Assembly (NCBI GenBank): GCA_963768295.1
Contig: CAVYHN010000009.1
Coordinates: forward strand, 262,548 to 326,547
Length of the DNA stretch: 64,000 nt
Origin: an uncultured Gammaproteobacteria bacterium
GTDB taxonomy: Bacteria > Pseudomonadota > Gammaproteobacteria > GCA-001735895
Reading direction: 5' to 3'
Shown one piece after another: positions 5,916 through 64,000 of the stretch. The position numbers were made by a program, and so were the translations under genes. Each line of letters starts with the position of its first letter. Positions within the stretch are counted from its first letter, which is position 1. The notes under the pieces are model-generated. The model did no database searches and was not told where the DNA came from. It worked only from the letters and a program-made list of their open reading frames with translations.

Positions 5916-5925
5916 GGGATATGAC

Positions 5926-6488: not shown

Positions 6489-6875
6489 TCAGGCTTCGCA
6501 CCGCTGGATAATCCTTTCGATTTTCTCTTTCAGCGTCGCCGCGGTGCAGGGTTTGACGACGTAATCATTGACGCCTGCCTCGGCGGCTATGACGATTTGA
6601 TCGCGCGTGGCCTCGGCGGTCACCATTAATACCGGCATGTCGCAGAGTGCATCGTCGGAACGTATTTTCTTGAGCAGGGTCAACCCGTCCATGCCGGGCA
6701 TATTCCAGTCGGTAACCAGGAAATCGAACTCGCCCGACCTGAGCATCGGCAGGGCGGTCTGTCCGTCGTCGGCTTCGAGCGTATTGTTAAAGCCCAGATC
6801 GCGCAGTAAATTCTTGATAATACGCCGCATGGTTGAAAAATCGTCAACGATAAGAATTTTCATGTCTTTATCCAT
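6489..6875 (-). CDS. cheY: chemotaxis response regulator CheY
   Basis: 128 aa, single receiver domain: DDFSTMRRI...DWNMPGMDGL...KP, a CheY-like pattern. Last gene of the flhF-flhG-fliA-cheY block. Confidence 0.9.
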   Translation of the reverse strand: MDKDMKILIVDDFSTMRRIIKNLLRDLGFNNTLEADDGQTALPMLRSGEFDFLVTDWNMPGMDGLTLLKKIRSDDALCDMPVLMVTAEATRDQIVIAAEAGVNDYVVKPCTAATLKEKIERIIQRCEA

Positions 6876-6997
6876 ACAGGCAACCCTCCGTCATATGGCA
6901 TTACTGTGATATCGAATAAACGGGAGTCCGTGGCTGAAATTGAACCCCGCTTTAATGTCGATACCCGCATCCTGTTTCACGCCGGCGGTTCGGCGCT

Positions 6998-7711: not shown

Positions 7712-7722
7712 CGCGTGCCCGT

Positions 7723-8583
7723 TCACAGGCGATCTTCCCGCGCGCTGAAATTCACCAGGCGCTCGATGAAGAACTCGAGATGTCCTTCTATGGAACTGGG
7801 GGACGGCCATTGCTGGGTCTTCTTCGCGATCTGCTTGAACGCGTTTGCTGACTGGCTGCGGGGAAAGGCCTCAACCACCGATTTCTGCTTTTGCACGGCT
7901 TTTTTCAGGCAATCGTCGTAGGGGATGCAGCCGAGATAATTGAGGGTAACGTCGAGGAAACGCTCCGACACCCGCGCCAGCTTGTTATACAGTTCGCGGC
8001 CCTGGGTCGCACCCTGCGCCTGGTTGGCCAGCACGTGAAATCGCTCGACGCCATAATCGCGATTCATGACTTTGACCATGGCGTAGGCATCGGTAATCGA
8101 CGCCGGTTCGTCGCAGACCACGACGATGACCTCGCGCGCGGCGCGCGTGTAGCTGACGACACTGTCGGACAAGCCGGCCGCGGTATCGATCAGCAGCGTG
8201 TCCACCGGTTCGGTCAGCTCGGAGAACGAGCGGATGATGCCCGCGTTTTGCGCCGGCGTCAGATCCGACATCGCCGCGACGCCCGAAGACGCCGGCACGA
8301 TCTTGATGCCGGCCGGACCTTCGATAATAGTTTCCTCGAGCGAACATTCGCCATTGATCACATGCGACAGGTTGAGCCCGGGGCTCAAGCCGAGTAATAC
8401 GTCGATGTTGGCGAGACCCATGTCCGCGTCCATGACCATGACTTTCTCGCCGGACTGTGCAAGCGTCACCGCGAGATTGATGGTGACGTTGCTTTTGCCG
8501 ACGCCGCCCTTACCGCTGGTCACCGCAATTACCCGCACCGGGTGTTGCGCTCTCATCTGTCTGATACCTTGGGCCTGATCCAT
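7723..8583 (-). CDS. flhG: flagellar number regulator FlhG/FleN (MinD-like ATPase)
   Basis: Deviant Walker A VTSGKGGVGKSN, MinD/ParA fold, position between flhF and fliA. Confidence 0.9.
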   Translation of the reverse strand: MDQAQGIRQMRAQHPVRVIAVTSGKGGVGKSNVTINLAVTLAQSGEKVMVMDADMGLANIDVLLGLSPGLNLSHVINGECSLEETIIEGPAGIKIVPASSGVAAMSDLTPAQNAGIIRSFSELTEPVDTLLIDTAAGLSDSVVSYTRAAREVIVVVCDEPASITDAYAMVKVMNRDYGVERFHVLANQAQGATQGRELYNKLARVSERFLDVTLNYLGCIPYDDCLKKAVQKQKSVVEAFPRSQSANAFKQIAKKTQQWPSPSSIEGHLEFFIERLVNFSAREDRL

Positions 8584-8594
8584 TAGTTCTCTAC

Positions 8595-10076
8595 CTATGC
8601 GTGATTCTTGTTAATGATGTGGTTATAACGCAGCGCCAGCGCCTCCTGGTCAAAATGCTCGCCGTGTTGCTGCATCAGCGACACCGCCCGGCTAATCAGG
8701 CGATGACTCTTCGCCGGTTCCAGGTCTTCCGGCACCTGCTGCCCGGTACCGCAGTAAGCCAGCACCAGTTGATGGCGAATCGATGCGGTAATAATGCCGC
8801 CGAGGCTGGCGGCTTCGTCCAGCTTGGTGACAATCGCGCCCGCCAGCTTTACCTTGTTGAAATTGAGAATGGTCTGGTTCAGCGCCGCCAGCTGGGTATT
8901 CGCCGACAGCACCAGGTACGGCTTGATCTGGGGTGCGCCGGCCTGCAGCCGATGAAACTGTTCGCTCAAACGCAAATCACGTTGACTCATGCCGGCGGTA
9001 TCGATCAATACCAGCTTCTTGTCGGCCAGCATGTCGAGTCGATCGCCGAGCTCTTCGCTATTGCTCGCCGTCAGCATCGGCACTTCCAGCAAACGCGCAA
9101 AATGCTGTAATTGTTCCTGCGCGCCGATCCTGAACTGGTCGGTGCTGATCATCGCCACCGAGCGCTTGCCATGGGTATGCGCAAAACGCGCCGCGAGCTT
9201 GGCAATGGTGGTGGTCTTGCCCACCCCGGTGGATCCCACCAGCGCGATGCGGCCACCCTCGGCCAGCAGGTCGCGACGGTTGATCGGCAGACAGGAGGCG
9301 ATAATGCCAAGCGCCTGCTGCCAGACCTTGTGCGGATCTTCGTTCAGCTTATCCAGGTGCGACAGTACGGTTTCACAAATATCTGCGCCCAGACCCATTT
9401 CCGACATCAGGTTCAATAACACGGTCCGCACCGGATGTTTTTGGCTGAATCGATCCCACTGCAAAACCGACAGCTGGCTTTCCATCAGATCGCGCAGGTT
9501 TTGCAACTCGTTTTTGACTTCATCGATAACCGGCCTTTCGGGTGCGGGCCTGACCGCGGCTGGTTGCTGCCTTTTGACCGCCGGTTTCCTGGCAACCGGC
9601 TTTTGTGCGACCGGCTTTCTGGCGGCCGGCTTTGGCGCCGGCCTGGCGACAGGCGGTTTGCTGCGAGCCTTCGCCGCCGCCGGTTTGATAGCTGGCCGAC
9701 GCACGGGCTGCGCTTGAGCCTGGCTGATGGGCTCCGCTAGCGGCGCCTGCCGGAACTGCGATCTGGAACCGCCGGCTGCCACCGGCCCAAGCGTTGGCTC
9801 CCTGCGGCCATCGTTAAGCGTCGAGCCAACCCAGGCATCGCTGGCCACGTCGTTAGCCGCGCCAGTGCTGGCAACGGGCCTTGATTCCCTGCGCGGCGCC
9901 GGCGCCTGGCTCGCCATGCTGGCGATTGCCGCTTCGTCATAGTCGACCGCGGACAGGATTTCGACACCTCCGGGCACCTTTTTGTTACCCAGGATAACCG
10001 CGTCCGGACCCTGTTCCTGTTTGACCAGGATCAGTGCGTCGCGCATGGTTGCTGCAAACGTACGTTTAATTCTCAT
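8595..10076 (-). CDS. flhF: flagellar biosynthesis GTPase FlhF (SRP-family)
   Basis: C-terminal SRP-type GTPase (GSTGVGKTTTIAKLAA...), basic Pro/Ala-rich linker; overlaps the flhA end. Confidence 0.9.
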   Translation of the reverse strand: MRIKRTFAATMRDALILVKQEQGPDAVILGNKKVPGGVEILSAVDYDEAAIASMASQAPAPRRESRPVASTGAANDVASDAWVGSTLNDGRREPTLGPVAAGGSRSQFRQAPLAEPISQAQAQPVRRPAIKPAAAKARSKPPVARPAPKPAARKPVAQKPVARKPAVKRQQPAAVRPAPERPVIDEVKNELQNLRDLMESQLSVLQWDRFSQKHPVRTVLLNLMSEMGLGADICETVLSHLDKLNEDPHKVWQQALGIIASCLPINRRDLLAEGGRIALVGSTGVGKTTTIAKLAARFAHTHGKRSVAMISTDQFRIGAQEQLQHFARLLEVPMLTASNSEELGDRLDMLADKKLVLIDTAGMSQRDLRLSEQFHRLQAGAPQIKPYLVLSANTQLAALNQTILNFNKVKLAGAIVTKLDEAASLGGIITASIRHQLVLAYCGTGQQVPEDLEPAKSHRLISRAVSLMQQHGEHFDQEALALRYNHIINKNHA

Positions 10077-17822: not shown

Positions 17823-19490
17823 TCAGGCGAAGGTATCTAGCAGACCGTCGCCAGTGAAATAGTTTGCCGGATGCTGCTGTGCCCGGGCCTTGTCCTGTTC
17901 CGGGTTCAATTCTTCACCGTTAGCAGAAGTTTCGTCAGAAGCGGTTTGCGAGCGGGACTGCTGCTGATCCTGGCGCTGTGACACATCGACATTCACGTTT
18001 TGATAACCACTTTCCTGCAGTAAATCACGCAGGCGCACCGAGGCGGATTCGATCAGGTCGCGGGTTTGCGCATGCTGCGTCTGAATCGTAATCGTGGTCG
18101 CGTCATCGGCGATTTTTATTTGCACATCGAGTTTGCCGAGCATCGGCGGATCGAGCCGAATGGTTGCGCTATTCTGCTTCTGGTTGATCATCCAGTTGAC
18201 CCGTTCACCCAGGCCATTGCTCAATTCGCCGGCGTCCGAGGTGCGCGTCAGATTCATGGTTTCAAGCTGAGCCGGCAATGCATTCTGGTTTACCGGCGGC
18301 GCCGTCACCGCGGCGCTAATCGCGTGGCTGTGTCCGCTCACAGACGAGGCTGTTAGCGACTGCTGCGTCTGGCTGCTCGAAATTTGTTGCGCCAGTTCCA
18401 GGTTACGGTTAGCGCCAAGCTCCGGACCGGCGGCTTCGGAATGGGTTTTTACCGCTTGCGCCGGCAGCCTGAAAGTCTCAGCCAGGTCGCTGTAATCTAC
18501 GTTTTCCACGCCGGCGGTCACTATTCCGGTTTGCCTGAGCGGGATCGGAACCGCAGCGTCCAGGCCGCGCGGCAATGGCAGGTCGCGCAGCAATGGCAAC
18601 TCCTTGCTGACGGATTCACGAACTGGATTTGCGCTGACCGCCAGCCCGTCTGGCCGGGTATCGGTCAAGCTTACGGGGTTCGGCATCCGCTCGCCGGCTC
18701 CATCCGCCCGGGTTATCGTGGCCCGGGTCTCGAACGCGGGTATTTTCAGCCTGGCGTCAGGCTCGCTGCGGGTGGCGTTTTCTGCAGCTAAAGTTGCGTT
18801 GAGCGACGCCTGGACATCAGGTGAAGGCTGACCGCCGGCAAGTCGTGCCGAGCTCGACTCGGCAACGATCGATTGTATTCCGTTGCCAGTTAAACTGGCC
18901 GCTGCTGTGGCAACGCTACCACCGCTATCGGTGGCGACTGCGGGCGTCGGTGCTGGCGCAAGCGGATTAACCAGGGCTTCGGCAGCGACCGACGCGGGGT
19001 TGATCGCGGCGCTGGCGGAACCTGGCCGGAGTGCTGCCGGCATGATTTCAGCGCGCGGCATTGCGAGCCCGCCGATCGCTGCATCGGGCAATAAATTTCC
19101 GCCGACAGGCAATGGTTCGCCGGTCCCGATCGGTATTTGAGCGCCTGCCACAGCAAACGCTCGTGGCTGATCCAGCAGGGACGTATCAATATCGACCGGG
19201 GTTAGCGCAACCGGATCGGCATCTGTCGAAATATGGATTTGCTGCTGTGACAGGAAGTCCTGCCAGGCCGCGGCCGCCGGGCCGACAGGGTTCAACTCCG
19301 AAGTCTGGGCCGCGCTCGAAAAATTTTCAAAAAACTCTTTAAATTCAATAATTTGATCGGCATTCTCGGGATCAGCAGGGAGTTGTTGCCGAGGTAAACC
19401 GGTAAAGCCGTCACCGCCTCCCGGCGCGACCACGGGCATATCCTGCATCTCCAGGGTCAGGGAGCGTATCTCGGTAAGCATTATGTTCAT
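17823..19490 (-). CDS. fliK: flagellar hook-length control protein FliK
   Basis: 555 aa, low-complexity N-terminal and middle regions, conserved C-terminal Flg_hook domain (…TIRLDPPMLGKLDVQIKIADDATTITIQTQHAQTRDLIESASVRLRDLLQESGYQNVNV…). Position between fliJ and fliL. Confidence 0.85.
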   Translation of the reverse strand: MNIMLTEIRSLTLEMQDMPVVAPGGGDGFTGLPRQQLPADPENADQIIEFKEFFENFSSAAQTSELNPVGPAAAAWQDFLSQQQIHISTDADPVALTPVDIDTSLLDQPRAFAVAGAQIPIGTGEPLPVGGNLLPDAAIGGLAMPRAEIMPAALRPGSASAAINPASVAAEALVNPLAPAPTPAVATDSGGSVATAAASLTGNGIQSIVAESSSARLAGGQPSPDVQASLNATLAAENATRSEPDARLKIPAFETRATITRADGAGERMPNPVSLTDTRPDGLAVSANPVRESVSKELPLLRDLPLPRGLDAAVPIPLRQTGIVTAGVENVDYSDLAETFRLPAQAVKTHSEAAGPELGANRNLELAQQISSSQTQQSLTASSVSGHSHAISAAVTAPPVNQNALPAQLETMNLTRTSDAGELSNGLGERVNWMINQKQNSATIRLDPPMLGKLDVQIKIADDATTITIQTQHAQTRDLIESASVRLRDLLQESGYQNVNVDVSQRQDQQQSRSQTASDETSANGEELNPEQDKARAQQHPANYFTGDGLLDTFA

Positions 19491-48485: not shown

Positions 48486-48642
48486 TTAACGCTAGACCAG
48501 CCCCTCTTTACTGCAGGCTTACCCCCTTGCTGACATCCTGTCGCAGTGTCAGATGTTCGCTATAGCGTCCCATCAAATGCCAATGGGGTATCTAGTCAGT
48601 GGCAAGCGCACAAGCTCAGGTCAATCCAGATGCAGGTATCTG

Positions 48643-50535
48643 TTACCCGAAGTTCAATATTAATCGAACCTGCGTTCCTGTCAGGGATCCGTTTATTTCA
48701 AGCTTTGCTCCAAGTTGCCCTGCGCGGTAGTGCATGTTCTTTATGCCCCGCCCTGCACTATTGCCGCCGGTGCTATTCTGCAAACCCCGGCCATAGTCGA
48801 TGATGTCAATATAAATCTGTGAATGTTCTGTTGCCAGCACCCCCGTCGTTAAGGTCAATTTCGCGGACCCAGAATGTTTGGCGCTATTGTTAATCGCCTC
48901 CTGCAGGATGCGCATGATGTGCAAACACTCGCCAGGCCCAATTGCCTCGCATTCGGGAAGATCAGTCACCGCCCACTCAAGTTCCATATTCGCCGAGCTA
49001 AGCTGCTCGGTAAATCGCATCCTCATCATTCCCAACAAGGTCGGCAAATCGCTGAGTACCGGGTCGAGCGAATCAATGACCAGACGCAAATCGGTTAAAC
49101 TGTGCTGCACCTTGTCACGAACGTTTCCAAAAACCTCTCCGCTTTTATCCTGCAACTGCGCGACGATGGATACCAGTTGCCCGCCGATACCATCATGCAT
49201 GTCACGCATGATTCGCTCACGCTCCTCTGCAAGCAGCCGTTTTTGCTCCGATATCCGCAGTTCCTGGTACTGGTTCTCCAGAGTCATCTGCTTTTCCCTT
49301 ACCCGTTGCTCGAGCACGGCAGTCATTTCTTCGGCCTGATTTATCGAACGCACGAAACGTCTGATCATGAACCAGCTGAATAACATGATTGATGGGATAA
49401 CACTGTACTGGACGATCAGTCCGTCAAGGCGGTCGATTAAATTATTCAGCAGCAAATAGTCATGCAGGCCTGAGACCAGGATGGGCATGCCGACTAAAAG
49501 CATCAGAAAAGCATCCTGAGCCGTTTTGTGATTTTTCTCTTCGCGGTAGTAAACAAATAGCAGATGCGAAATAGCGTAAATACCCAGCAGGCAAATACCG
49601 GTATCAAGAATGTGATAACCGACGTAATGGACGCTACTGACATCCGGAAGAAAAAGTAAACCGATGCTGGCGAGCGCGAAATACAGAATGATCTTTTCTA
49701 TTTTTTTATTCGCATAACCTACATAGCTGTGATTGAAGAAAATCATGGTCACGATCGTCCACACAAACGAAACCAGAATAACGGCCTCCCACAGACGAGT
49801 AGACACCGGCACGCCGGTGACAAACAGGTTTAGGTTATGCGTAGCCCAGAGAAACAGTTCCAGAGAAAACAAGGCGTAGACAATATCCTTGCGCCTGGCC
49901 AGCCAGAAGGCAAAAACGATCATCGACATGAAATACATCGCGGCGGTAATCCACTGAATAAATTCAAAACGGACCAGCCGCTTCCAGTCATAGGCAGGCT
50001 GTAGCTTTTTTGCCGGGCCGAAATAAAAACGATCGAGTAGACCCTGCTTGCCGACGGTGGTCTGCATTCGAATGTGAATACGGTTTTCACCCGAACGTAA
50101 CAGGTTTGACGAAAAGTTGATCATTAGTGGCTGATTGTGATGCCGCGACAAGGGCTCATCAAAACTGCCACCCTGGCCCACCCAGAGGCCATTGACATAC
50201 ACCGCGGCATTGTGAAAAACCATGGGCAAGTACACGGCCCATGCCGCCTCGGATCTGTCTTCAACGACAATTGTGGCCCGATACCAGGCACGATCCACCT
50301 GGGAATCTCGTTTCGCCCAGTCATCGGGTAACGACGCGGGCTGCCAATCCCCGGTTGGTAATTGAGCGGGTTCAGACAAATCGCTTGCGAGGTATTCGAG
50401 TTTTTCGATAGCCGGCAACTGTGGTTCGAAAAAAATACTGAATGGGGTATGAAAAACGACGACATTTAACAATGCCAGATAGATAAACAGAATCGAAAAC
50501 GCTGTGATTTTATGCCGGGTAAACCATGAAAACAT
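48643..50535 (-). CDS. 7TM-receptor-type sensor histidine kinase (periplasmic 7TMR-DISM-like sensor + 7 TM + HisKA_3 + HATPase), copy 1
   Basis: 630 aa: N-terminal extracellular domain, 7 TM helices, H-box RIMRDMHDGIGGQL (NarX/DegS-type), ATPase G-boxes. Confidence 0.85.
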   Translation of the reverse strand: MFSWFTRHKITAFSILFIYLALLNVVVFHTPFSIFFEPQLPAIEKLEYLASDLSEPAQLPTGDWQPASLPDDWAKRDSQVDRAWYRATIVVEDRSEAAWAVYLPMVFHNAAVYVNGLWVGQGGSFDEPLSRHHNQPLMINFSSNLLRSGENRIHIRMQTTVGKQGLLDRFYFGPAKKLQPAYDWKRLVRFEFIQWITAAMYFMSMIVFAFWLARRKDIVYALFSLELFLWATHNLNLFVTGVPVSTRLWEAVILVSFVWTIVTMIFFNHSYVGYANKKIEKIILYFALASIGLLFLPDVSSVHYVGYHILDTGICLLGIYAISHLLFVYYREEKNHKTAQDAFLMLLVGMPILVSGLHDYLLLNNLIDRLDGLIVQYSVIPSIMLFSWFMIRRFVRSINQAEEMTAVLEQRVREKQMTLENQYQELRISEQKRLLAEERERIMRDMHDGIGGQLVSIVAQLQDKSGEVFGNVRDKVQHSLTDLRLVIDSLDPVLSDLPTLLGMMRMRFTEQLSSANMELEWAVTDLPECEAIGPGECLHIMRILQEAINNSAKHSGSAKLTLTTGVLATEHSQIYIDIIDYGRGLQNSTGGNSAGRGIKNMHYRAGQLGAKLEINGSLTGTQVRLILNFG

Positions 50536-50600
50536 AACTGTCCGCCCGCTTCTTTGGAGCTAGTGCATATAGCTCACAAGAGAAATATCCGCTGATACCG

Positions 50601-51245
50601 CTAAGGTAAGAGCCCCTGTTGAATCGCCTGGTAAATAGCTTCTGATCGGCTGTTAACCTGCAGCTTATTATATATATTTTTGATATGCGTGGTGACGGTG
50701 TAATACGTGATGCCCAGTTTCTCGGAAACCTCTTGCGCCGAGAAACCCTGGCTCAACAGTTTCAGAATCTTTGTTTGCCTTGGGGTTAAGGCTTCGGGCA
50801 AAGGAATCGTCTGGGTTTGCACATTATGAAACTTCAACAGCATCAGCCGCGCAATAACCGGGCTCATCGGGGCACCGCCATCGATCATGGCGAGAATGGC
50901 ATCGGTGATTTTCTGACTCTTATCGTGTTTTAGAATATAGGCTTTGGCACCCGCTTCCAGTGCCTTGAACACCAGGTTTTCATCCTGAAAACCGGAAATC
51001 ACCATCGCGTCGCAATCCAGGTGCTGTTGCTCGATGGCCCTGATAATGTCGATACCGGAACCATCCGGCAAGCCGAGATCGGTGAGCAACACATCCGGTT
51101 TATGTTGAGATAAGGCCGACAAACCCTGCTCCATCGTGCCGCAGGCATCGAGCAGCTCGAACTGCTCGTGCTCCGCAATCAGGCTTGATAAACGACCCCG
51201 TACATCGGCATCATCCTCGACCAGCGTCACGGTATATTTATGCAT
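50601..51245 (-). CDS. NarL/FixJ (LuxR)-family response regulator, copy 1
   Basis: 214 aa, receiver (…DVLLTDLGLPDGSG…) plus C-terminal LuxR HTH (…ALTPRQTKILKLLSQGFSAQEVSEKLGITYYTVTTHIKNIYNKLQVNSRSEA…). Confidence 0.9.
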   Translation of the reverse strand: MHKYTVTLVEDDADVRGRLSSLIAEHEQFELLDACGTMEQGLSALSQHKPDVLLTDLGLPDGSGIDIIRAIEQQHLDCDAMVISGFQDENLVFKALEAGAKAYILKHDKSQKITDAILAMIDGGAPMSPVIARLMLLKFHNVQTQTIPLPEALTPRQTKILKLLSQGFSAQEVSEKLGITYYTVTTHIKNIYNKLQVNSRSEAIYQAIQQGLLP

Positions 51246-51347
51246 TGTTCATTAATCCGGAAAACATGCCTGTTATTGTAATGGCTGGCAGCGGCGTATC
51301 ACATTCACCCAGGGCATTGAGGGACAGATCGGAACCGAGATCCGCAG

Positions 51348-52221
51348 CTAGTAAATATACACCGAGCCGGCAAAGGAAGCGCTGTTATCCGACTGATCGC
51401 CACCGATACCGGTGGTCACACTATCCTCATCAGTGGCCCCCACTGCCAGGGTGCCGCCGTCTCCAGATAAGGCCAGGTTTAGACCGAACTCATCATTATC
51501 CTCGGTATTTGAAGCCTTGACGTAACCGATAGCCTCGACCAGATTAGCCGATAAGACCAACTCCGCAGAGGCGCATACCATCAACTTGACCAGAATGTTC
51601 CTTTGCAATCAGTTGATTATTATGCTCGATATCCTGATTGTATTGTAAACTAAAGTAATTATTTTCTATTCGACCTTCTTGCAATTCACCGCGACAAGAA
51701 TTCTTAAGACAAAAATTCACGACTTTCCAATTATATTTCGTCTTACATTGTCGACATTCTTGTTGAGGACCATTAACCGATTTTTTAACAACTAAAATAT
51801 CCGGATGCAACAACAATGCTTCTTGATTTCGATGCATATAATTTTCTATATAACCCATTTCGGTTAAAAAGGCAACAGCTTCATTCAAGTATGCTTCTTG
51901 GTTTTGAATATCATCACCGAAACATCTTCGGGTCCAGGTAGTCAAAGTTCGAGAAGTTCTTAATGCGAATGTATTAAAACGGTCCCCAAGCAATCTTCTT
52001 TGCTGCGGTTCAGCATTTGAAAAACATCCGGGTTTTGTTCCTTCAACAGCTTCAAATATTCTTTTGTCCGGAAGTATTTGACTTATTGGAACTATTACTT
52101 GTTGACCAAATGTTTCTCTATCAAGTAAGTTAGGATGGTTAAAGGCATTCTCTCTTCGGAATATATCCATTATCCCCTTGAGGTAATCATGCGCCAGATC
52201 AGGATTTTCAGCCGAAAGCAA
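51348..52221 (-). pseudogene. low-GC gene X copy 1: Cys-rich N-domain plus C-terminal FG-GAP-like repeat, split by a 2-nt indel
   Basis: ORF 51544..52221 (…CRQCKTKYNWKVVNFCLKNSC…NNQLIAKEHSGQVDG) and ORF 51348..51608 (…CASAELVLSANLVEAIGYVKASN…FG…LALSGDGGTLAVGATDEDS…VYIY) are contiguous in the right-arm copy but out of frame here (GGTATGCGCC versus GGTTGTTGCGCC). GC content drops to about 35-40%. Confidence 0.45.
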
Positions 52222-52416
52222 ATCATTACTCTTTAAATTAAATGAGTCTAATTTGCTTTCGGGTGAAAATCCAGATCTGACGCATGATTATCTCAAGGGT
52301 ATAATGGATATTTTCATAAGAGAAATGCTTTTAACCATTCTAACTTACTTGATAGAGAAACATTTGTCAACAGGTAATAATTCCAATTAGTCAAATACTT
52401 CCGGATAAAAGAATAT

Positions 52417-53118
52417 TTGAAGCTGTTGAAGGAACAAAAGTTCAGGGGTGTTTTTCAAACGCTGAACCGCAGCAAAGAAGAATTGCTTGGGTGCCGTTTT
52501 AATCCTTTCGCATTAAGAATTTCTCGAACTTTGAATACCTGGACTCGAAGATGTTTTGGTGATGATATTCAAAACCAAGCATACTTGAATGAAGCTGTTC
52601 CTTTTTAACCGAAATGGGTTATATAGAAAATTATATGAGTCGAAAGCATTGTTGTTGCATCCGGATATTTTAGTTGTTAGGAATTCGGTAATAGGTCCTC
52701 AACAAGAATGTCGACGATGTAAGACGAAATATAATTGGAAAGTCAGTGAATTTTTGTCTTAAGAATTCTTGTCGCGGTGAATTGCAGAAGGTCGAATAGA
52801 AATAATTACTTTAGTTTACAATATCAATCAGGATATCGACGTAATAATCAACTGATTGCAAAGGAACATTCTGGTCAAGTTGATGGTTGTTGCGCCTCTG
52901 CGGAGTTGGTCTTATCGGCTAATCTGGTCGAGGCTATCGGTTACTTCAAGGCGTCGAATGCTGAAGCAAGTGATGAGTTCGGCACGACCCTGGCCTTATC
53001 CGCTGATGGCAGCACCATGACAGTGGGGACTGTTGATGAGGATAGTGCCTCGACCGGGATCGGTGGCGATCAGCCGGATAACAGCGCTACCTCTGCAGGT
53101 GCGGTGTATATTTACTAG
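52417..53118 (+). pseudogene. low-GC gene X copy 2: N-domain degraded by multiple frameshifts and stops, FG-GAP tail intact
   Basis: ORF fragments 52417..52608 (…FALRISRTLNTWTRRCFGDDIQNQAYLNEAV…) and 52777..53118 (…NNQLIAKEHSGQVDGCCASAELVLSANLVEAIGYFKASN…AVYIY) match copy 1. Intervening frames are broken but still show similarity (LLLHPDILVV…GPQQECRRCKTKYNWKV). Confidence 0.4.
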
Positions 53119-53219
53119 CTGTGGATCTCAGCTCAGACCCGTTTGCCAATGCCTGGCCGAATGTGAAATATTGGTGTCAGCCATTACAATAACAGGCATG
53201 TTTTCCGGATTAATGAACA

Positions 53220-53864
53220 ATGCATAAATATACCGTTACGCTGGTTGAGGATGATGCCGATGTACGGGGTCGTTTATCAAGCCTGATTGCGGAGCACGAG
53301 CAGTTTGAGCTGCTCGATGCCTGCGGCACGATGGAGCAGGGTTTATCGGCCTTATCGCAACATAAACCCGATGTGTTGCTCACCGACCTCGGCTTGCCGG
53401 ATGGTTCCGGTATCGACATTATCAGGGCCATTGAGCAACAACATCTGGATTGCGACGCGATGGTGATTTCCGGTTTTCAGGATGAAAACCTGGTGTTCAA
53501 GGCACTGGAAGCGGGGGCCAAAGCCTATATTCTAAAACACGACAAGAGCCAGAAAATCACCGACGCCATTCTCGCCATGATCGATGGCGGTGCTCCGATG
53601 AGCCCGGTTATCGCGCGACTGATGCTGTTGAAGTTTCATAATGTGCAAACCCAGACGATTCCCTTGCCCGAAGCCTTGACCCCGAGGCAAACCAGGATTC
53701 TGAAACTGTTGAGCCAGGGTTTCTCGGCGCAGGAGGTTTCCGAGAAACTGGGTATCACTTATTACACTGTCACCACGCATATTAAAAATATATATAATAA
53801 GCTGCAGGTTAACAGCCGATCAGAAGCTATTTACGAGGCGATTCAACAAGGGCTCTTACCTTAA
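53220..53864 (+). CDS. NarL/FixJ (LuxR)-family response regulator, copy 2
   Basis: 214 aa, differs from copy 1 at 2 residues (K to R, Q to E). Confidence 0.9.
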   Translation: MHKYTVTLVEDDADVRGRLSSLIAEHEQFELLDACGTMEQGLSALSQHKPDVLLTDLGLPDGSGIDIIRAIEQQHLDCDAMVISGFQDENLVFKALEAGAKAYILKHDKSQKITDAILAMIDGGAPMSPVIARLMLLKFHNVQTQTIPLPEALTPRQTRILKLLSQGFSAQEVSEKLGITYYTVTTHIKNIYNKLQVNSRSEAIYEAIQQGLLP

Positions 53865-53928
53865 CGGGTCAGCGAAAATTTTTCTTGTAAGCTATATGTA
53901 GTAGCTGCAGAGGGAGTGGCAGACATAT

Positions 53929-55821
53929 ATGTTTTCATGGTTTACCCGGCATAAAATCACAGCGTTTTCGTTTCTGTTTGCCTATCTGGTATTGTTAAAT
54001 GTCATCGTTTTTCATACTCCATTCAACATTTTTTTCGAACCACAGCTGCCGGCTGTTGAAAAACTCGAATACCTTGAAAGTGATTTATCTGAGCCCGCTC
54101 AATTACCAACCGAGGATTGGCGGCCCGCGTCGTTACCCGATGACTGGGCGAAACGAAATACCCAGGTAGATCACGCCTGGTATCGGGCCACAGTTATCGT
54201 TGAAGACAGACCCGAGTCAGTATGGGCCGTGTACCTGCCCATGGTTTTTCACAATGCCGCGGTGTATGTCAATGGCCTCTGGGTGGGCCAGGGCGGCAGT
54301 TTTGATGAGCCGTTGTCACGGCATCACAATCAGCCACTAATGATCAACTTTTCATCAAGCCTGTTACGTTCGGGTGGGAACCGTATTCACATTAGAATGC
54401 AGACCACCGTCGGCAAGCAGGGTTTACTCGATCGTTTCTATGTCGGCCCGGCAAAAAAGCTACAGTTTGCCTATGACTGGAAGCGGTTAATCCGGTTTGA
54501 ATTTATTCAGTGGATTACCGCCGCGATGTATTTCATGTCGATGATCGTTTTTGCCTTCTGGCTGGCCAGGCGCGCGGATATTGTCTACGCCTTGTTTTCC
54601 CTGGAACTGTTTCTCTGGGCTACGCATAATCTAAACCTGTTTGTCACCAGCGTGCCGGTGTCTACTCGTCTGTGGGAAGCCATAATTCTGGTTTCGTTTG
54701 TCTGGACGATCGTAACGATGATTTTCTTCAATCACAGCTATGTTGGTTATGCGAACCGGAAAATAGAGAAGATAATTCTGTATTTCGCGCTCGCCAGCAT
54801 CGGTTTACTTTTTCTTCCGGATGTCAGTAGCGTTCATTACGTCGGTTATTACATTCTTGATACCGGTATTTGCCTGTTGGGTATTTACGCTATTTCACAT
54901 CTGCTATTTGTTTACTATCGCGAAGAGAAAAATCACAAAACAGCCCAGGATGCTTTTCTGATGCTTTTAGTCGGCATGCCCATCCTGGTTTCAGGCTTGC
55001 ATGACTATTTGCTGCTGAATAATTTGATCAATCGCCTGGACGGACTTGTCGTTCAGTACAGTGTCATCCCATCAATCATGTTATTCAGCTGGTTCATGAT
55101 CAGACGTTTTGTGCGTTCGATAAATCAGGCTGAAGAAATGACTGCCGTGCTCGAGCAACGGGTAAGGGAAAAACAGATGACCCTGGAGAGCCAGTACCAG
55201 GATCTGCGAGTATCGGAGCAAAAAAGGCTGCTTGCAGAGGAGCGTGAGCGAATCATGCGTGACATGCATGATGGTATCGGCGGGCAACTGGTATCCATCG
55301 TCGCGCAGTTGCAGGATAAAAGCGGAGAGGTTTTTGGAAACGTTCGTGACAAGGTGCAACACAGTTTAACCGATTTGCGTCTGGTCATTGATTCGCTCGA
55401 CCCGGTGCTCAGCGATTTGCCGACCTTGTTGGGAATGATGAGGATGCGATTTGCCGACCAGCTAAGCGCGGCGAATATGGAACTTGAGTGGGCGGTGACC
55501 GATCTTCCCGAATGCGAGGCTATCGGACCTGGCGAGTGTTTACATATCATGCGTATCTTGCAGGAGGCTATTAACAATAGCGCCAAACATTCTGGATCCG
55601 CTAAATTGACCTTAACGACGGGAGTGCTGGCTGCAGAACATCCGCAGATTTATATTGACATCATCGATTATGGCCGGGGTTTGCCGAATAACACCGGCGG
55701 CAATCATGCAGGGCGGGGCATAAGGAACATGCACTACCGCGCAGGGCAACTTGGAGCAAAGCTTGAAATAAATGGATCCTTAACGGGAACACTGGTTAGA
55801 TTAATATTGAATTTTCGATAA
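53929..55821 (+). CDS. 7TM-receptor-type sensor histidine kinase, copy 2
   Basis: 630 aa, same architecture as copy 1 with about 40 substitutions, concentrated in the N-terminal extracellular sensor domain and the C-terminal ATPase tail. Confidence 0.85.
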   Translation: MFSWFTRHKITAFSFLFAYLVLLNVIVFHTPFNIFFEPQLPAVEKLEYLESDLSEPAQLPTEDWRPASLPDDWAKRNTQVDHAWYRATVIVEDRPESVWAVYLPMVFHNAAVYVNGLWVGQGGSFDEPLSRHHNQPLMINFSSSLLRSGGNRIHIRMQTTVGKQGLLDRFYVGPAKKLQFAYDWKRLIRFEFIQWITAAMYFMSMIVFAFWLARRADIVYALFSLELFLWATHNLNLFVTSVPVSTRLWEAIILVSFVWTIVTMIFFNHSYVGYANRKIEKIILYFALASIGLLFLPDVSSVHYVGYYILDTGICLLGIYAISHLLFVYYREEKNHKTAQDAFLMLLVGMPILVSGLHDYLLLNNLINRLDGLVVQYSVIPSIMLFSWFMIRRFVRSINQAEEMTAVLEQRVREKQMTLESQYQDLRVSEQKRLLAEERERIMRDMHDGIGGQLVSIVAQLQDKSGEVFGNVRDKVQHSLTDLRLVIDSLDPVLSDLPTLLGMMRMRFADQLSAANMELEWAVTDLPECEAIGPGECLHIMRILQEAINNSAKHSGSAKLTLTTGVLAAEHPQIYIDIIDYGRGLPNNTGGNHAGRGIRNMHYRAGQLGAKLEINGSLTGTLVRLILNFR

Positions 55822-56355
55822 TTGATACCTGCATCTGGATTGACCTGAGCCTGAAAGTATCTTCACTCAGAGTAAAGCATTCGGATTCAACAGGCCATCA
55901 TCCGTGAACCGCTATACGCAGCCGGACATGGCGCCGTGGTCGGTGAACTTAACCAGGTGACCAATAGGGCGGTGCGGGCAAAACAGGGGTCGAGGTCATT
56001 CTCGATTATTTGGGATCCTCCGCCGGCGCTGAAAAAAAACTTCAAGCCCATACAATCGCACAAATAGAAAACCCCAGGGGACTTGTCGCGGGGAAAATCC
56101 GGGCGGCTCATTCCTGGTTGCGAGAATAGGGCAGAAATCGAATTAGTCGGACAGGCTATTTATAACAAAGATCTTTGACAGGGAGCAATCGAGCAGATAG
56201 CAAATCCAGAAACAGGGTTTCTTCGTACGGAGTTTTGCGGGGATTGGTTGTGCATTGTTATGCTTCGTGGTGCAAAGCCTGGAATCGCGCGCCACATAAG
56301 CTCATGAAAAATAGAGAAGTATAAGTTGGTTTGTAATCTGAAAATCCCCGTGTCG

Positions 56356-56396
56356 GTGCCGAGCGCGGACCGGTTCGATTCCGCCCCTGGGCACAA
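56356..56396 (+). other. tRNA 3'-end-like remnant (T-loop GGTTCGATTCC plus acceptor-like CCCTGGGCACAA)
   Basis: GTGCCGAGCGCGGACCGGTTCGATTCCGCCCCTGGGCACAA resembles the T-arm and acceptor 3' strand of a tRNA-Leu(CAG)-type gene (…GTTCGAGTCTCGCCCTGGGCACCA). No matching 5' half upstream. The intact tRNA-Leu(CAA) 3' end at 48466 is different. Confidence 0.3.
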
Positions 56397-56739
56397 TTTT
56401 TTTCCCATCAACCAGCAATAGCTAATCGAGTGCCTGGCCTGTATCAAATGCTGGTCGCTAGCCTCGATTCTCTTGCGAGCCTTAAAATAGTGCTGTCAAT
56501 ATCGCGGCGCAAATAAAGGTCGAATCGCAAGTTACCTGTTAATCGCAGATTTGCCATCTCTGGAATTGCTTCTGAATCCCGATGACCCGGGAGTATGTGT
56601 CCCTTAGTAACTTCCTTTAGGAAGCAGTGAACGGCATCCATCCGTGCAACATTTCGACGTGTGGCTCGGCATACTACGGCAAGCCTGATTGATCACCTGG
56701 CTTAAATCGTCCAGAGCAGGGCGACAAAATCGATGTTAA

Positions 56740-58790: not shown

Positions 58791-59630
58791 ATGAGCGAAA
58801 AAGCAGAACTTTTTTTTGAGGAATTAAAAATTGCTATTGAAACGGACAAACTGGTTCTGCCCTCATTGCCCGAAGTAGCACTAAAAATTCGTGATGTGGT
58901 CGATAGTGAAACTGCTTCTGCACAACAAGTGTCAGAAATTCTGGCTCAGGATGCGGCGCTTTCTGCACGGCTAATTCAGGTTGCGAATAGCCCGCTGTAT
59001 CGCACGCGAAACCCAATCGAAGATCTACAAATGGCCATTACGCGAATGGGTCTACGGTTAGTGCGCGATCTGGTTATGAGTCTGGCTATGAAACAAATAT
59101 TTCAGGCAACATCTGATGTGTTAGATGAACAATTTCGTGCCACCTGGAATACATCTGTCACCATGGCTGCTATCTGTCGGATGTTATCTAATACGGTTCC
59201 AGGCATGAATTCTGAACAGGCGTTATTAGCTGGATTGATACATAATATTGGCGCATTACCCATACTGGTATTAGCGGAAAAAGATGATGATCTGGTTATG
59301 GATGCCGGCACACTAAATGACATGATCTGGGAATTACAGGGCCGTGTTGGGGAGTTGATACTGGAAAGCTGGCATTTCCCCAAACCAATGATTGATGTGG
59401 TTAAAGAGTGCCATAACTTTGATTATACGCACGACGATGCTGCGGATTATGTCGATCTGGTACAAGCGGCTTTATTGCAAAGCCACCTGGTGGGCGAGAA
59501 ACATGCTCCATCCGATTGGTCTACTGTACCGGCATTTGCAAAACTGGGAATGGACACAGAAATAAACATTATTGATATAAAAGAAAATAAGGAAATTATT
59601 GAAGAAACCAAAGAGTCTTTGATGATTTAA
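58791..59630 (+). CDS. HDOD-domain protein
   Basis: 279 aa: LPSLPEVALKIRDVV…SAQQVSEILAQDAALSARLIQVANSPLY… matches the HDOD signalling domain. Confidence 0.85.
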   Translation: MSEKAELFFEELKIAIETDKLVLPSLPEVALKIRDVVDSETASAQQVSEILAQDAALSARLIQVANSPLYRTRNPIEDLQMAITRMGLRLVRDLVMSLAMKQIFQATSDVLDEQFRATWNTSVTMAAICRMLSNTVPGMNSEQALLAGLIHNIGALPILVLAEKDDDLVMDAGTLNDMIWELQGRVGELILESWHFPKPMIDVVKECHNFDYTHDDAADYVDLVQAALLQSHLVGEKHAPSDWSTVPAFAKLGMDTEINIIDIKENKEIIEETKESLMI

Positions 59631-59821: not shown

Positions 59822-59957
59822 TTTCTTTGAAAGAGATCGGCGAACACTATCGAAAGCATTACACGACGACAGTCGGATTGTAAAAAGTGTTAGAGTTATG
59901 ACTTTGAAAGACCTGACCCCGATAATTTATTGATTGTCGGAAAGATGTGGAGACTGT

Positions 59958-62150
59958 ATGAGTAAACATACATTTTCATTTGGTGGCAAGGTTGCAGTAG
60001 TCACTGGTGCTTCCCGTGGCATCGGCAAGTCTGTTTGTATCGAACTGGCGCGAAGAGGTTGTAGCATTGTCGCAATTGCAAGACCTTCAGATGAACTCAA
60101 TGAAGTCGTAGATGTGCTGCGTGGGCAGGGGCACGACGCTCAGGCGTTCCCTTGTGACCTGAATGATACCGACGCAATTGAAACATTGTGTAAACAATTA
60201 TTACACCAATATGTGCATATAGATATTCTGGTTAACTGCGCAGGAGTTGGTAAATTCGGCCCGATAGATTCGTTGACATTTGCTGAAACACGCGCACCTA
60301 TCAACGTGCCTTTTACTGCTGCAGTTTGCCTGTCCAGGGGGCTGTTGCCGGCAATGATCAATCGGGGTGAAAGTCGGATTATCAACGTGGTTAGTCCGGC
60401 CGGGTATTTCGATTTGCCGTATATGGCCGCATATACGGCGTCACGTTCGGGGCTGTTAAGCTTTACGCGTTCACTGGATGAAGAAGTCAAGTTGCAAGGT
60501 GTCAGGGTACGTTCAGTTTGTCCGGCCTGGGTGGACAGCGAGTATATCAGTCGAAATCAGACCGATGGTGACTGGCTGCCGAAAATGTCGAAATATTTTC
60601 CAGTGGCAAGCACTGACGAAGCAGCGGGCATGGTCATTAAATCTATAGTCGGCAATCGACGGGAATACAAAGCGGGTTGGATACTCAACCTGTGCGTACT
60701 CTGCTATCGCTGGTTTCCACGCCTTTCTGTTGGGAGTTTCAAGATACTGGGACTCTATGCTCCTCCTGCATTAAGCGCAGTCGCAAAAAATCGCAAGGAT
60801 GCCGATGAGTGGACGAATTGGGAAGAAAGTATCTCACTGGAGGCATCGCGCACGACGTTTCCCACCAGCGTCGAGGAAGTCGCTGCCATCGTTGCAAACA
60901 CCAAAGAATATCCATCGCCGCTGCGCGCCGCCGGTTCTCGGCATACAACGACACATTGTGGTGTTGCTGATCGAGGTACCCTGGTCATCATGCGCGATAT
61001 GGATCGTGTCATCGACATCGATGTTGATGCGTTAACGGTTACCGTGCAGGCGGGCGCCCTGTATATCGATGTCTCGGAAGCGCTCAAAGCAAAAGGACTG
61101 CAGTTCTATGTAAACGTTGAAATCGGTAACCTGACCATGGGTAGTGCCGCCTCGACCGGGACGAAAGATGCATCCATGCCGGGCGAATATGGGCAGGTAT
61201 GTTCGTATTGTGTTGGCGTTACCATGGTCATGGCCGACGGCGAAGTGCGCAGCATAAACGAGGATGAACCCGAATTGATGCAGGCAGTTCGTTCCAGCTA
61301 TGGTTTACTCGGTGTGATTGTTGAAACCACTTTCCGCGTGCAATTATTGCGACCGATGTTGGTCAAACACCAAACCTACAGTCTGGATCAGTTTGAGCGT
61401 GTCTTGCCGGAATTGCGCCAACGGAACCAGTCCATCATGTACTACCTGTTTCCATTCCAGAATAAATTAACGGTCGAATTCCGGCAGTATGTTGATGGAC
61501 CAATAACTCGACCCAATCGCTGGAAGTGGCGGCTGCGAAATTTCTTCTGGAAAACACTGGCGCCCAGCTTTTCTTTTTTAGCGACGCGCTTTGTCAGCCA
61601 TCGGCGAATTCGTTACCTGTTAATCGACACCTTCTTCCAGCTTATTCCATTCTTGACCAGGTGGGTTATCAGTAGTCAGAACACATTGGCAGGTGATCAG
61701 ATAATTCGCTATCCGGAGCACAAGAATTTCTCCAAATATACGTTCAGCATCTGGGCATTTCCTGAAGAGAAAATAATGCCCACCATGCGCGCCTATTTCA
61801 GTTTCTGCCAGGACTATTATCGCGATCATGGGTTTCGGTGTGATTTGCTGAACGTGGGGTATCGGATCGAAGCCGACACAAATCCTCTTTTTTCTTATTC
61901 GTATGATGGCACGGTGATGACGCTGGATCCGGTGACTACCGGCGCGCCGGGTTGGGATGACTTTCTAAAGGCCTATAATGAGTTTTGTTCTCAACATGGC
62001 GGTGTACCCCTGTTTAATCAGACAAAGTGGTTAACCCAAAGCCAGGTGCACAAGGCTTTTGGCGATAAAATTGATGATTTTCAAAAAATTCGTCGCAGCA
62101 TGGATCCTGAGGACCGATTATTGAATCGATATTTCAGGGAGTTGTTATAA
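59958..62150 (+). CDS. fusion protein: N-terminal short-chain dehydrogenase/reductase (SDR) plus C-terminal FAD-linked oxidase (PCMH FAD-binding plus ALO/GULO-type C-domain)
   Basis: N-terminus GKVAVVTGASRGIGKS… and …YTASRSGL… give the SDR cofactor and catalytic Tyr-x3-Lys motifs. The middle …VEEVAAIVANTKEYPSPLRAAGSRHTTTHCGVADRGTLVIMRDM… is an FAD-binding PCMH domain. The C-terminus …PLFNQTKWLTQSQVHKAFGDKIDDFQKIRRSMDPEDRLLNRYF matches sugar-1,4-lactone/alditol oxidase tails. GGAG RBS 6 nt before the ATG at 59958. Confidence 0.75.
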   Translation: MSKHTFSFGGKVAVVTGASRGIGKSVCIELARRGCSIVAIARPSDELNEVVDVLRGQGHDAQAFPCDLNDTDAIETLCKQLLHQYVHIDILVNCAGVGKFGPIDSLTFAETRAPINVPFTAAVCLSRGLLPAMINRGESRIINVVSPAGYFDLPYMAAYTASRSGLLSFTRSLDEEVKLQGVRVRSVCPAWVDSEYISRNQTDGDWLPKMSKYFPVASTDEAAGMVIKSIVGNRREYKAGWILNLCVLCYRWFPRLSVGSFKILGLYAPPALSAVAKNRKDADEWTNWEESISLEASRTTFPTSVEEVAAIVANTKEYPSPLRAAGSRHTTTHCGVADRGTLVIMRDMDRVIDIDVDALTVTVQAGALYIDVSEALKAKGLQFYVNVEIGNLTMGSAASTGTKDASMPGEYGQVCSYCVGVTMVMADGEVRSINEDEPELMQAVRSSYGLLGVIVETTFRVQLLRPMLVKHQTYSLDQFERVLPELRQRNQSIMYYLFPFQNKLTVEFRQYVDGPITRPNRWKWRLRNFFWKTLAPSFSFLATRFVSHRRIRYLLIDTFFQLIPFLTRWVISSQNTLAGDQIIRYPEHKNFSKYTFSIWAFPEEKIMPTMRAYFSFCQDYYRDHGFRCDLLNVGYRIEADTNPLFSYSYDGTVMTLDPVTTGAPGWDDFLKAYNEFCSQHGGVPLFNQTKWLTQSQVHKAFGDKIDDFQKIRRSMDPEDRLLNRYFRELL

Positions 62151-62323
62151 CGGCATGACTAGCGAACTGTCCATTTGGTGGAACTTCCAGAAACACCACT
62201 GATTTACGGATAGTCCAGAGAAAATCCTGTAACGTTTGAGCAGCAAATGCCGAACCCATATCGATTGCTGCCGGGGAATATACGCGCAACCCGATAGGTT
62301 GGCGCACATGAGGAGTGCCAGGA

Positions 62324-64000
62324 ATGCAATTACCCGAAGAATACCAAAGACTTGATGCACAGGAACAAAGTGTATTGTTAGATAGCTTGCAGCGACAGAC
62401 AGTACCAATCTGGTGAATGTATTTTCAAGGCAGGTGATGCCGGGGACTATGCCCTGTTTATCGAATCCGGGGATGTTCGGCTGGAATTTGAAGAGCACGA
62501 ACTCGATTGCGAATTAGTTGTTGCAACGATGTGTGCGGGTGACATTGTTGGTGAACTTTCTTTGCTGGATGAAGAAGTTCGATCACTTTCTGCATACGCT
62601 GAAAACGATGTGGAGGTACGCTTACTGAGTCGCCAGGTACTGGATCAGCTAAAGCAGACTAATCCGAAGTTTGCTGCCTCCATGTTCCAGGCACTCGGCA
62701 TGAGTGCCTCTGTAAAGTTACGTAAGGCCAACGATAAAGTAGAAGAGTCGTTGCTGATGCAGCATGGCCATTTAAGTCAGGTCGATGACAAAGTCACCAG
62801 GGCGAGTGACGCGCAAGCAGCTTTCATCGGATGGAGTGAGGCACAAATTGACGAACTTTTATTTCGTATGTGCCAGGTCATTCTGGAAAACAGCCTGACA
62901 CTGGCAGAGCAGGCGGTTAAGGAAACCCGGCTTGGAAACGCAAAAGACAAACAACAAAAGCATGCCAGCGCATGCCTCGGTGTATACGGCGATATCGTTG
63001 CAAAAAAAGGATCGGGTGTTGCTAAAAAACATTTTCATAACGGGGTTACGGAAATCTATGATGCGATGGGCGTCATATTCGGATTGATACCGATGACAAA
63101 CCCGGTATCCACGACAGTTTTCAAGGCGCTTATTTCGGTCAAATCACGTAACAGTATCATTCTCAGTCCGAATCGAATGGGTAGTGTCGTCGTTATGAAA
63201 GTAGTCGATATGCTTCGAGCGGTACTCGCGGAGCACGGAGCACCGGCTGATCTCATTCAGGTCGTTGAAGAGCGACAAAGTCGTCAAATGACGTCAGCAT
63301 TTATGCGTCATTCGGGCGTCGCTTTAGTGCTGGCAACGGGCGGCGCTTCGATGGTCAAAGCGGCTTATAGCTCCGGCACACCGACCATTGGCGTCGGGCC
63401 GGGCAATACGCCCTGTATGATCGCTCATGATGCAAATCTCAAGCATGCAGCAACGTCCATCATTCGCAGTAAAGCTTTCGACAACGGTATTATTTGTGGA
63501 TCAGAACACAATCTGGTTGTTCCAGAATCGATTCATTCTTCACTGTGTGAAAATTTACAAAGCTGCGGGGCAGCGGTTTTGAATGCGGATGAAACGGAAC
63601 TGTTCACCCAGAAAGCATTCACGCCAAAGGGGCATCTGAACCGACGCATAATCGGTCAGGATGCTGTCAAGATTGCCGAATTCATCGGTATAAAACGAGA
63701 CTACCCGATCAAGTTGATTGTCGTGCCCGCAGAAGGCGTTCACGGCAACAATCCATTGGCAAAAGAAAAATCAGCACCGATCGTCAGTTTGTTTACTGTT
63801 TTGGATGATCAAGCAGGCAATCAAACTGTGCGCCGCTATTCTGGAAATAGACGGCGCTGGTCATACTGCGGTTATCCATACGCGCGATCGAAAACTTGCG
63901 CGACAATTTGCCAATACGATCAAAGCGAGCCGGATTCTGGTGAATAGTCCTGGACTACAGGGTATTACCGGTGGTTGCACCGGTTTGATACCGTCTTTCA
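62324..64000 (+). CDS. fusion protein: cyclic-nucleotide-binding (CAP-type) domain plus AdhE-type acetylating aldehyde dehydrogenase domain; two apparent frameshifts; continues beyond window
   Basis: AGGAG-8nt-ATG at 62324. Frame A: MQLPEEYQRLDAQEQSVLLDSLQRQ…stop. Frame B (ORF 62529..63947 and its upstream extension): …YQSGECIFKAGDAGDYALFIESGDVRLEFE…GELSLL…RSLSAYAENDVEVRLLSRQVLDQL… is the cNMP-binding fold. Then …GVIFGLIPMTNPVSTTVFKALISVKSRNSIILSP…ATGGASMVKAAYSSGTPTIGVGPGNTP…FDNGIICGSEHNLVV… is the AdhE ALDH domain. The last 170 nt continue in frame C (…ILEIDGAGHTAVIHTRDRKLARQFANTIKASRILVNSPGLQG…). Confidence 0.7.

Follow-up and report, generated by a model that had tools for sequence, protein, structure and literature searches.

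Does the gene that runs off the 3' end of this DNA encode an AdhE-type enzyme under the control of a cyclic nucleotide, and is this copy of it still functional? The stretch presented above comprises 64,000 nucleotides (hereafter the window). From position 62324 to the end it carries a gene in which a cyclic-nucleotide-binding (CNB) domain is followed by an aldehyde dehydrogenase (ALDH) domain, and in which the coding frame changes twice. A reading of the sequence alone (hereafter the sequence-only reading) had taken this gene for an unusual fusion of a CAP-family sensor with an AdhE/EutE-type acylating ALDH, which would continue beyond 64000, probably into an alcohol dehydrogenase (ADH) half. 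Our analysis points to a family of fusion proteins outside AdhE, putatively gated by a cyclic nucleoside monophosphate (cNMP), and to a copy in the window that was inactivated very recently. As an account of the whole locus, we regard this combination as probable.

A sensor domain joined to an acylating aldehyde dehydrogenase

Both domains were detected by Pfam on the joined protein: cNMP_binding (PF00027) at residues 25-113 with E = 6.3e-15 and 55.4 bits against a gathering threshold of 27.5, and Aldedh (PF00171) with E = 9.1e-27. In the three-frame translation of 62150-64000, the motifs GLIPMTNPVSTTVFKALIS, ATGG, GVGPGNTP and FDNGIICGSEH, from which the ALDH had originally been recognized, share one frame. 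The gene starts at ATG 62324, where three intact orthologues (L001, L002 and L003) also start in the DNA alignment. The catalytic Cys is present on the correct alignment and is invariant among 116 relatives. We also looked for a separate small gene for the cNMP part in the relatives, and found that they encode the fusion. The full product is thus predicted to be a single polypeptide of about 628 aa, consisting of the CNB domain, a helix of about 35 residues, the acylating ALDH and a short C-terminal helix. The gene indeed continues beyond 64000, by about 70 codons as estimated by homology, since P0121 and P0001, the products of two of the orthologues, proceed to residue 628 and then stop.

The expected ADH half, on the other hand, did not appear. 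A homologue search gave 6285 proteins at E <= 1e-10, and the domain lists of the best 120 were inspected. Full-length entries among these have 572-684 aa and carry Pfam cNMP_binding and Aldedh only, except for one 886-aa entry with an added SDR and three truncated or partial entries; apart from two truncated entries, all of the 120 have both domains. The nearest relatives with an intact gene are P0121 (628 aa, from L001, 94.6% nucleotide identity; its protein is 94% identical to the corrected window protein), P0001 (from L003, 89%) and P0002 (from L002, 85%). All three end at 625-628 aa and are followed by intergenic DNA or a gene on the opposite strand. The longer variants of the family are cNMP-ALDH-SDR (P0061 and P0258), cNMP-ALDH-Pyr_redox_2 (P0256), cNMP-ALDH-Aminotran_3 (P0266) and FHA-cNMP-ALDH (P0304). 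Neither these variants nor the best 120 homologues, as judged by their Pfam lists, have an iron-containing ADH (Fe-ADH) domain.

A cNMP-gated bifunctional AdhE with its Fe-ADH half hidden past 64000 would agree with the facts that the AdhE model NF010378 is the best NCBIfam match of the ALDH domain (2.4e-130) and that AdhE structures are among the best PDB matches. However, that match reaches 435.9 bits, far under the cut-off of 951, and covers only positions 11-450 of the 872 of the model. Together with the termination of the orthologues at 85-95% nucleotide identity and the lack of Fe-ADH described above, this refutes a bifunctional AdhE for the orthologues and makes it very improbable for the window gene. 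The EutE-type model TIGR02518 (403 against a cut-off of 620) and the SauS model NF047625 (331 against 600) likewise gave scores under their equivalog cut-offs, so that a distinct subfamily is indicated and equivalence of substrates should not be assumed. We therefore place the ALDH domain, as judged from sequence, in a separate subfamily of CoA-acylating ALDHs and not in AdhE. Its homology to the ALDH half of the spirosome-forming AdhE of E. coli (6ahc, 6tqh; E = 2e-82) is clear, but AdhE has no N-terminal sensor domain, and the Fe-ADH half of AdhE is absent from every member of the cNMP-ALDH family that we have seen. Where an alcohol-forming partner is fused in this family, it is an SDR (P0061, P0258).

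The same fusion was found in related genomes, in more than 110 protein clusters from Gammaproteobacteria, Xanthobacteraceae, Ignavibacteria and Bacteroidota. Moreover, when the region of the sensor-enzyme junction (62397-63086) was searched against 1.84 billion cluster representatives (50%-identity clusters), 11 matches at E <= 1e-30 and 231 at E <= 1e-10 were obtained, and about 35 of the best 150 representatives matched across the whole junction. The family thus appears to be diverse, not huge, and widespread in genomes and metagenomes. The architecture is unusual, as had been stated, in comparison with characterized proteins, whereas it is common in genomes and metagenomes. In the sources, the proteins go by generic names such as 'aldehyde dehydrogenase family protein' and 'acyl-CoA reductase-like...'. 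A full-text literature search for a fusion of cyclic-nucleotide-binding and aldehyde or acetaldehyde dehydrogenase domains found no relevant paper, and one for cNMP-fused NDH-2 found nothing relevant; the co-mention of cNMP and aldehyde dehydrogenase terms in an encapsulin paper (PMC8346489) was unrelated.

An alignment of 116 full-length members (A1) has 45 invariant columns, including the catalytic Cys (C391 of P0001), the His of the GHT motif, LATGG and GVGPGN. The phosphate-binding cassette of the sensor is also conserved among these members (G76 in 100%, E77 in 99%, R86 in 91%, S87 in 81% and A90 in 98%) and is kept in the window; the ligand site is therefore under selection. The AlphaFold2 model of P0001 made from A1 (mean pLDDT 92.6, pTM 0.84) shows a beta-barrel, a long helix (114-147) that leads into the ALDH fold, and a C-terminal helix (606-627). 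The best PDB matches by sequence were 3k9d (8e-85), 5j78 (9e-83) and the AdhE 6ahc (2e-82), and by Foldseek the target-normalized TM-score of the model was 0.92-0.94 to 5j7i, 3k9d and 8cei (0.93 for 5j7i and 3k9d); the ALDH half of AdhE was matched as well. The CNB part separately matched PKG, PKA-R, CRP proteins and the cAMP-binding EAL enzyme Bd1971, and no solved chain spanning both domains was found among the Foldseek and PDB sequence matches.

With regard to known systems, stand-alone acylating ALDHs (the EutE-type or acetylating 3k9d and 5j78/5j7i, and the SucD 8cei) have the same fold. The acetylating ALDHs and SucD share 31-37% identity over about 440 residues (E = 1e-85 to 1e-73) with the family, and the catalytic Cys and GHT motifs are common to both. 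PduP-type propionaldehyde dehydrogenases (5jfl, 4c3s), also of this fold, have TM-scores of 0.87-0.92 and 23-26% identity (E = 1e-41 to 1e-33). In comparison with the stand-alone enzymes, the family adds the N-terminal CNB domain, the 35-residue linking helix and the C-terminal helix. CRP/CAP transcription factors share the CNB fold and have Gly-Glu and Arg-Ser in their phosphate-binding cassette, and the CRP model of NCBIfam matches residues 14-141 at 3.8e-11. They carry, however, a helix-turn-helix DNA-binding domain that is missing from cNMP-ALDH, where the C-helix leads into the enzyme.

Two inserted bases in the window copy

In the DNA alignment with L001, L002 and L003, the gene differs in length at exactly two places, where the window has an additional A (62395; CAGCG[A]CAGACAG) and an additional G (63813; GATCAA[G]CAGGCA). 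A fourth relative, L011, which covers the second site only, is likewise intact there. Both of the frame changes that had been located near 62395-62412 and near 63825-63840 are therefore real; the first falls inside its range, but the second lies about 12 nucleotides upstream of its range. Each insertion shifts the frame by +1, and the two do not compensate for each other. The frame of the start codon reads MQLPEEYQRLDAQEQSVLLDSLQR and stops at TGA 62414-62416 after 30 codons. The next frame holds the rest of the CNB domain and most of the ALDH, and the third frame runs from QAIKLCAAILEIDGAGHTAVIHT to GLIPSF at the window end, where it includes the family-invariant G510, G512, H513, R536, P542, G549 and L554. 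The sole in-frame restart is ATG 62529 (the internal Met69), before which no Shine-Dalgarno sequence was seen.

From this ATG, the public annotation calls an open reading frame (ORF) of 472 aa that ends in 42 out-of-frame residues. This ORF is identical to P0003, which comes from an NCBI/ENA contig of 338,419 bp that also carries P0401, 100% identical to the product of the upstream gene; the insertions are thus already in the public assembly. The 472-aa product is without half of the sensor barrel and the last approximately 130 residues of the enzyme; ten residues that are invariant in the family are lost with the latter. As assembled, the gene yields a 30-aa peptide and at best this 472-aa fragment, and the copy is non-functional. 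In other words, the annotated 'protein' is a fragment, and the copy in the window is either newly dead or mis-assembled.

The insertions are more likely biological than not, and a recent inactivation in the organism is, in our estimate, just on the probable side. Several observations argue for this origin. No frameshift was seen in about 55 kb of coding sequence elsewhere in the window, against two in 1.7 kb here. Pfam or NCBIfam searches covered about 35 other ORFs (those of the flagellar cluster between 6.5 and 41 kb, sec/tgt, two-component genes, HDOD and the SDR-flavoprotein) and no split domains were seen among them; the remaining long ORFs have lengths typical for intact genes. With about 55 kb of coding sequence, we estimate the chance that two random errors both land in this 1.7-kb gene at about 0.03. 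Neither insertion stands in a homopolymer, which is the usual context of indel errors. In addition, the surrounding low-GC segment contains another decayed gene copy.

Other observations weigh against such an inactivation and would fit a gene that is intact and functional in the organism, the extra bases being errors of consensus or assembly, such as may arise in the low-GC segment where coverage is low or strains are mixed. The window copy has 22 synonymous and 13 non-synonymous lineage-specific changes and the intact L001 has 40 and 24, namely the same ratio without erosion. The corrected frame is free of stop codons, and 135 of the 139 positions that are at least 90% conserved in the family are retained; at three of the other four the window has the same residue as the intact P0001, and at the fourth P0001 is also off consensus. 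Nor is there damage to the ribosome-binding site, the start codon or the partner gene upstream. The two defects are alike, each being a +1 insertion, and the relatives are unbroken at these sites. Moreover, the source resembles a metagenome-assembled genome of an uncultured gammaproteobacterium, in which local consensus errors occur. On the other hand, errors of this kind have to be reconciled with the clean coding sequence in the rest of the 64 kb and with the non-homopolymer sites. We consider an intact gene behind a faulty consensus to be a serious possibility that falls short of probable. Because there is no sign of relaxed selection, only a very recent event or an artefact is compatible with the data. 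An old pseudogene was ruled out by the retained residues and the lack of excess non-synonymous change, and a generally error-ridden assembly by the full-length domains of the flagellar cluster and the other ORFs tested.

Explanations other than recent inactivation or assembly error have a slight chance only. One of them is that the frame changes are programmed, namely ribosomal +1 frameshifting or transcriptional slippage used as a regulatory device. The shared direction of the two shifts (+1) would agree with it. However, neither site has a slippery heptamer or homopolymer. None of the close relatives contains the extra bases, and each of them has the whole protein in one frame. A gene with two programmed sites, neither of them conserved, would be without precedent. 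For lack of both motif and conservation we rejected programmed frameshifting, which is hardly credible here.

Neighbouring genes and a possible cyclic-nucleotide switch

Directly upstream of the cNMP-ALDH gene of the window lies an intact gene for a fusion of an SDR with a VAO-type flavoprotein (adh_short 3.9e-47, FAD_binding_4 3.2e-23 and ALO 3.7e-8 by Pfam). L-galactonolactone dehydrogenase and xylitol oxidase are distant relatives of its flavoprotein part. In L001-L003 the gene immediately before cNMP-ALDH encodes an orthologue of this FAD oxidase. The same arrangement occurs in L012 (61% aa identity) and in L013 (58%), the latter with a separate SDR (40%) ahead of the oxidase. The cNMP-ALDH proteins of L012 and L013 are only about 45% identical to that of the window, yet they have the same flavoprotein partner. 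The SDR-VAO fusion itself forms a widespread family under the generic name 'SDR family NAD(P)-dependent oxidoreductase', with about 27 clusters of 730-757 aa among the matches. Many other genomes encode the flavoprotein on its own, in a gene of about 450 aa.

The more distant loci offer other neighbours. In L004, a gene for a CHASE2 + class-III cyclase is directly upstream (5614-7836), and MMPL and TP_0789-like genes are downstream. A gene for an NDH-2-like Pyr_redox_2 protein with a C-terminal cNMP_binding domain (522-546 aa) adjoins the cNMP-ALDH gene in four lineages, namely Xanthobacteraceae (L005-L007), Ignavibacteria (L008-L010) and two further metagenomic lineages (L014-L017), and in several loci its start codon and the ALDH stop codon overlap. 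In L018, a gene for a cNMP_binding-NTE-patatin phospholipase is directly downstream (7866-9755) and an SDR is also adjacent. The SDR and Pyr_redox_2 fusions mirror these neighbourhoods, and for the Aminotran_3 fusion the only possible counterpart, in L002, is not adjacent. No annotated microcompartment (shell-protein) genes were present in the loci examined. One further relative, L011, was found by a metagenome scan; its downstream genes and those of L002 show that the downstream neighbourhood varies among close relatives. A short ORF downstream of cNMP-ALDH in L011 (1252-1494, minus strand; beginning with MMSNHYHLLIETG) resembles a fragment of a REP-associated or Y1-type transposase.

The second-messenger context is in these loci of the relatives. 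The sequence-only reading had sought it in an HDOD gene and a GGDEF gene of the window, and both are indeed present, the former at 58791-59630 (3.4e-45) and the latter as a partial gene at 2-664 on the minus strand. As context, neither of them stands: another gene lies between HDOD and the cNMP-ALDH gene, and HDOD is absent from every relative's locus that extends past the adjacent gene, while GGDEF is 62 kb away and belongs to no conserved neighbourhood.

Gating of the ALDH by a cNMP is likely in view of the conserved cassette and of the cyclase or other cNMP-domain enzymes encoded in family loci, and its mode may be proposed by analogy with other enzymes fused to a CNB domain. In the Bdellovibrio cAMP-binding EAL phosphodiesterase Bd1971 (6hq2-6hq7), the CNB domain is N-terminal to the catalytic domain, and its sequence matches the CNB domain of the family at E = 6e-8. 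Enzymes of this type may serve as a model for the probable working of the family, although the output domain differs, being an acylating ALDH here. The mycobacterial cAMP-dependent lysine acetyltransferase Rv0998/MSMEG_5458 also has its CNB domain N-terminal to the catalytic domain. By such a mechanism, cAMP or cGMP would bind to the N-terminal sensor domain and reposition the linking helix, by which the ALDH domain would be switched on or off. The ALDH domain would then interconvert an acyl-CoA and an aldehyde, and the enzyme would probably act with the upstream SDR + VAO-type flavoprotein, the aldehyde being passed to the partner enzyme. In other lineages, this partner may be an SDR (giving an alcohol), an aminotransferase (giving an amine) or the NDH-2-like flavoprotein. 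From their conserved residues, the sensor looks competent for a ligand and the ALDH for catalysis. The RS(A/L)S of the cassette would fit cAMP or cGMP and does not discriminate between them, and acetyl-CoA, succinyl-CoA and longer acyl-CoAs all seem compatible with the nearest relatives. Against the proposed gating, about 9% of the members have a degenerate cassette with His for Arg86, and no reported ligand binding or enzyme activity was found for any family member.

Bacterial cAMP signalling is understood almost entirely via CRP-type transcription factors, and to our knowledge studies of enzymes under the direct control of a fused cNMP-binding domain are few. It is quite possible, and close to probable, that the cNMP-ALDH family is a widespread unrecognized node at which cAMP or cGMP has direct control, through the enzymes themselves, over carbon and redox metabolism, in post-translational 'cNMP regulons' across several phyla. 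If so, it would represent a cNMP-switched acyl-CoA reductase/aldehyde dehydrogenase with interchangeable partners (SDR, VAO-type flavoprotein, aminotransferase and NDH-2-like protein), co-encoded with other cNMP-gated enzymes (NDH-2-cNMP and cNMP-patatin) and also, in a single locus, with a cyclase of its own. Enzymes with a fused CNB domain are already known, and the acylating ALDH output is uncharacterized but abundant in databases. The family would thus add acyl-CoA/aldehyde interconversion, a part of central metabolism, to the short list of CNB-gated enzymes. The importance rests on the family rather than on the copy in the window.

Feature coordinates and the surrounding segment

Table 1. 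Positions of the cNMP-ALDH gene, its upstream partner and the duplicated two-component genes in the window
Feature	Position	Strand	Basis or remark
Shine-Dalgarno-like GAGGAG	62310-62315	+	8 nt 5' of start codon; read from sequence
5' segment, codons 1-24, ATG frame	62324-62394	+	base-for-base alignment with L001, L002, L003
Frameshift 1, inserted A	62395	+	gap in three intact relatives
Cyclic-nucleotide-binding beta-barrel	62397-62663	+	Pfam PF00027 match
Publicly called ORF, 472 aa (P0003)	62529-63947	+	exact protein match
Phosphate-binding cassette GELSLLDEEVRSLSAYA	62550-62600	+	within sensor barrel
Long linking helix from sensor to enzyme, residues 114-147	62664-62765	+	AlphaFold2 model of P0001
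CoA-acylating ALDH, first part, residues ~150-496	62772-63812	+	PF00171, PDB, Foldseek
Catalytic Cys codon TGT	63495-63497	+	within FDNGIICGSEH
Frameshift 2, inserted G	63813	+	gap in L001, L002, L003
ALDH, last visible part, residues 497-558, QAIKLCAAILEIDGAGHTAVIHT...GLIPSF	63814-64000	+	frame-1 translation; matches P0121, P0001
SDR + VAO-type flavoprotein fusion (FAD_binding_4 + ALO), 738 aa as listed ORF	59934-62150	+	intact; Pfam
HisKA_3 histidine kinase, first arm	48643-50535	-	93% aa identical to second copy
LuxR-type response regulator, first arm	50601-51245	-	99% aa identical to second copy
LuxR-type response regulator, second arm	53220-53864	+	99% aa identical to first copy
HisKA_3 histidine kinase, second arm	53929-55821	+	93% aa identical to first copy

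The GC content falls from about 57% at 1-48 kb (flagellar, sec and tgt genes) to about 48% at 48-64 kb, and the GC content at third codon positions (GC3) from about 0.7 to about 0.5. This change suggests that 48-64 kb may be a mosaic or acquired segment, within which the cNMP-ALDH locus lies.

A near-palindromic inverted duplication of 7.2 kb occupies 48611-55853, with its centre near 52.2 kb. Its arms have 92-95% DNA identity, down to 83% near the centre, and each carries one response regulator and one histidine kinase (Table 1). At the centre of the palindrome, an ORF of 225 aa (51544-52221, minus strand) has a GC3 of 0.27 and no Pfam or NCBIfam match. The mirror copy of this ORF (52250-52920, plus strand) is broken across three frames, with tblastn pieces of 41-88% identity, and is apparently a second decayed gene in the low-GC segment. 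Next to the duplication, at 55890-56495 on the minus strand, two putative ORFs of 90 and 111 codons stand in the same frame with a single stop (56160-56162) between them, and have no Pfam match.

In the high-GC part, the gene at 986-2986 (plus strand) encodes 666 aa with a FliK-type Flg_hook domain; it lies outside the main flagellar cluster and runs in the opposite direction. A 555-aa ORF at 17823-19490 (minus strand) occupies the usual position of fliK between fliL and fliJ, and is a candidate for this gene by its position.

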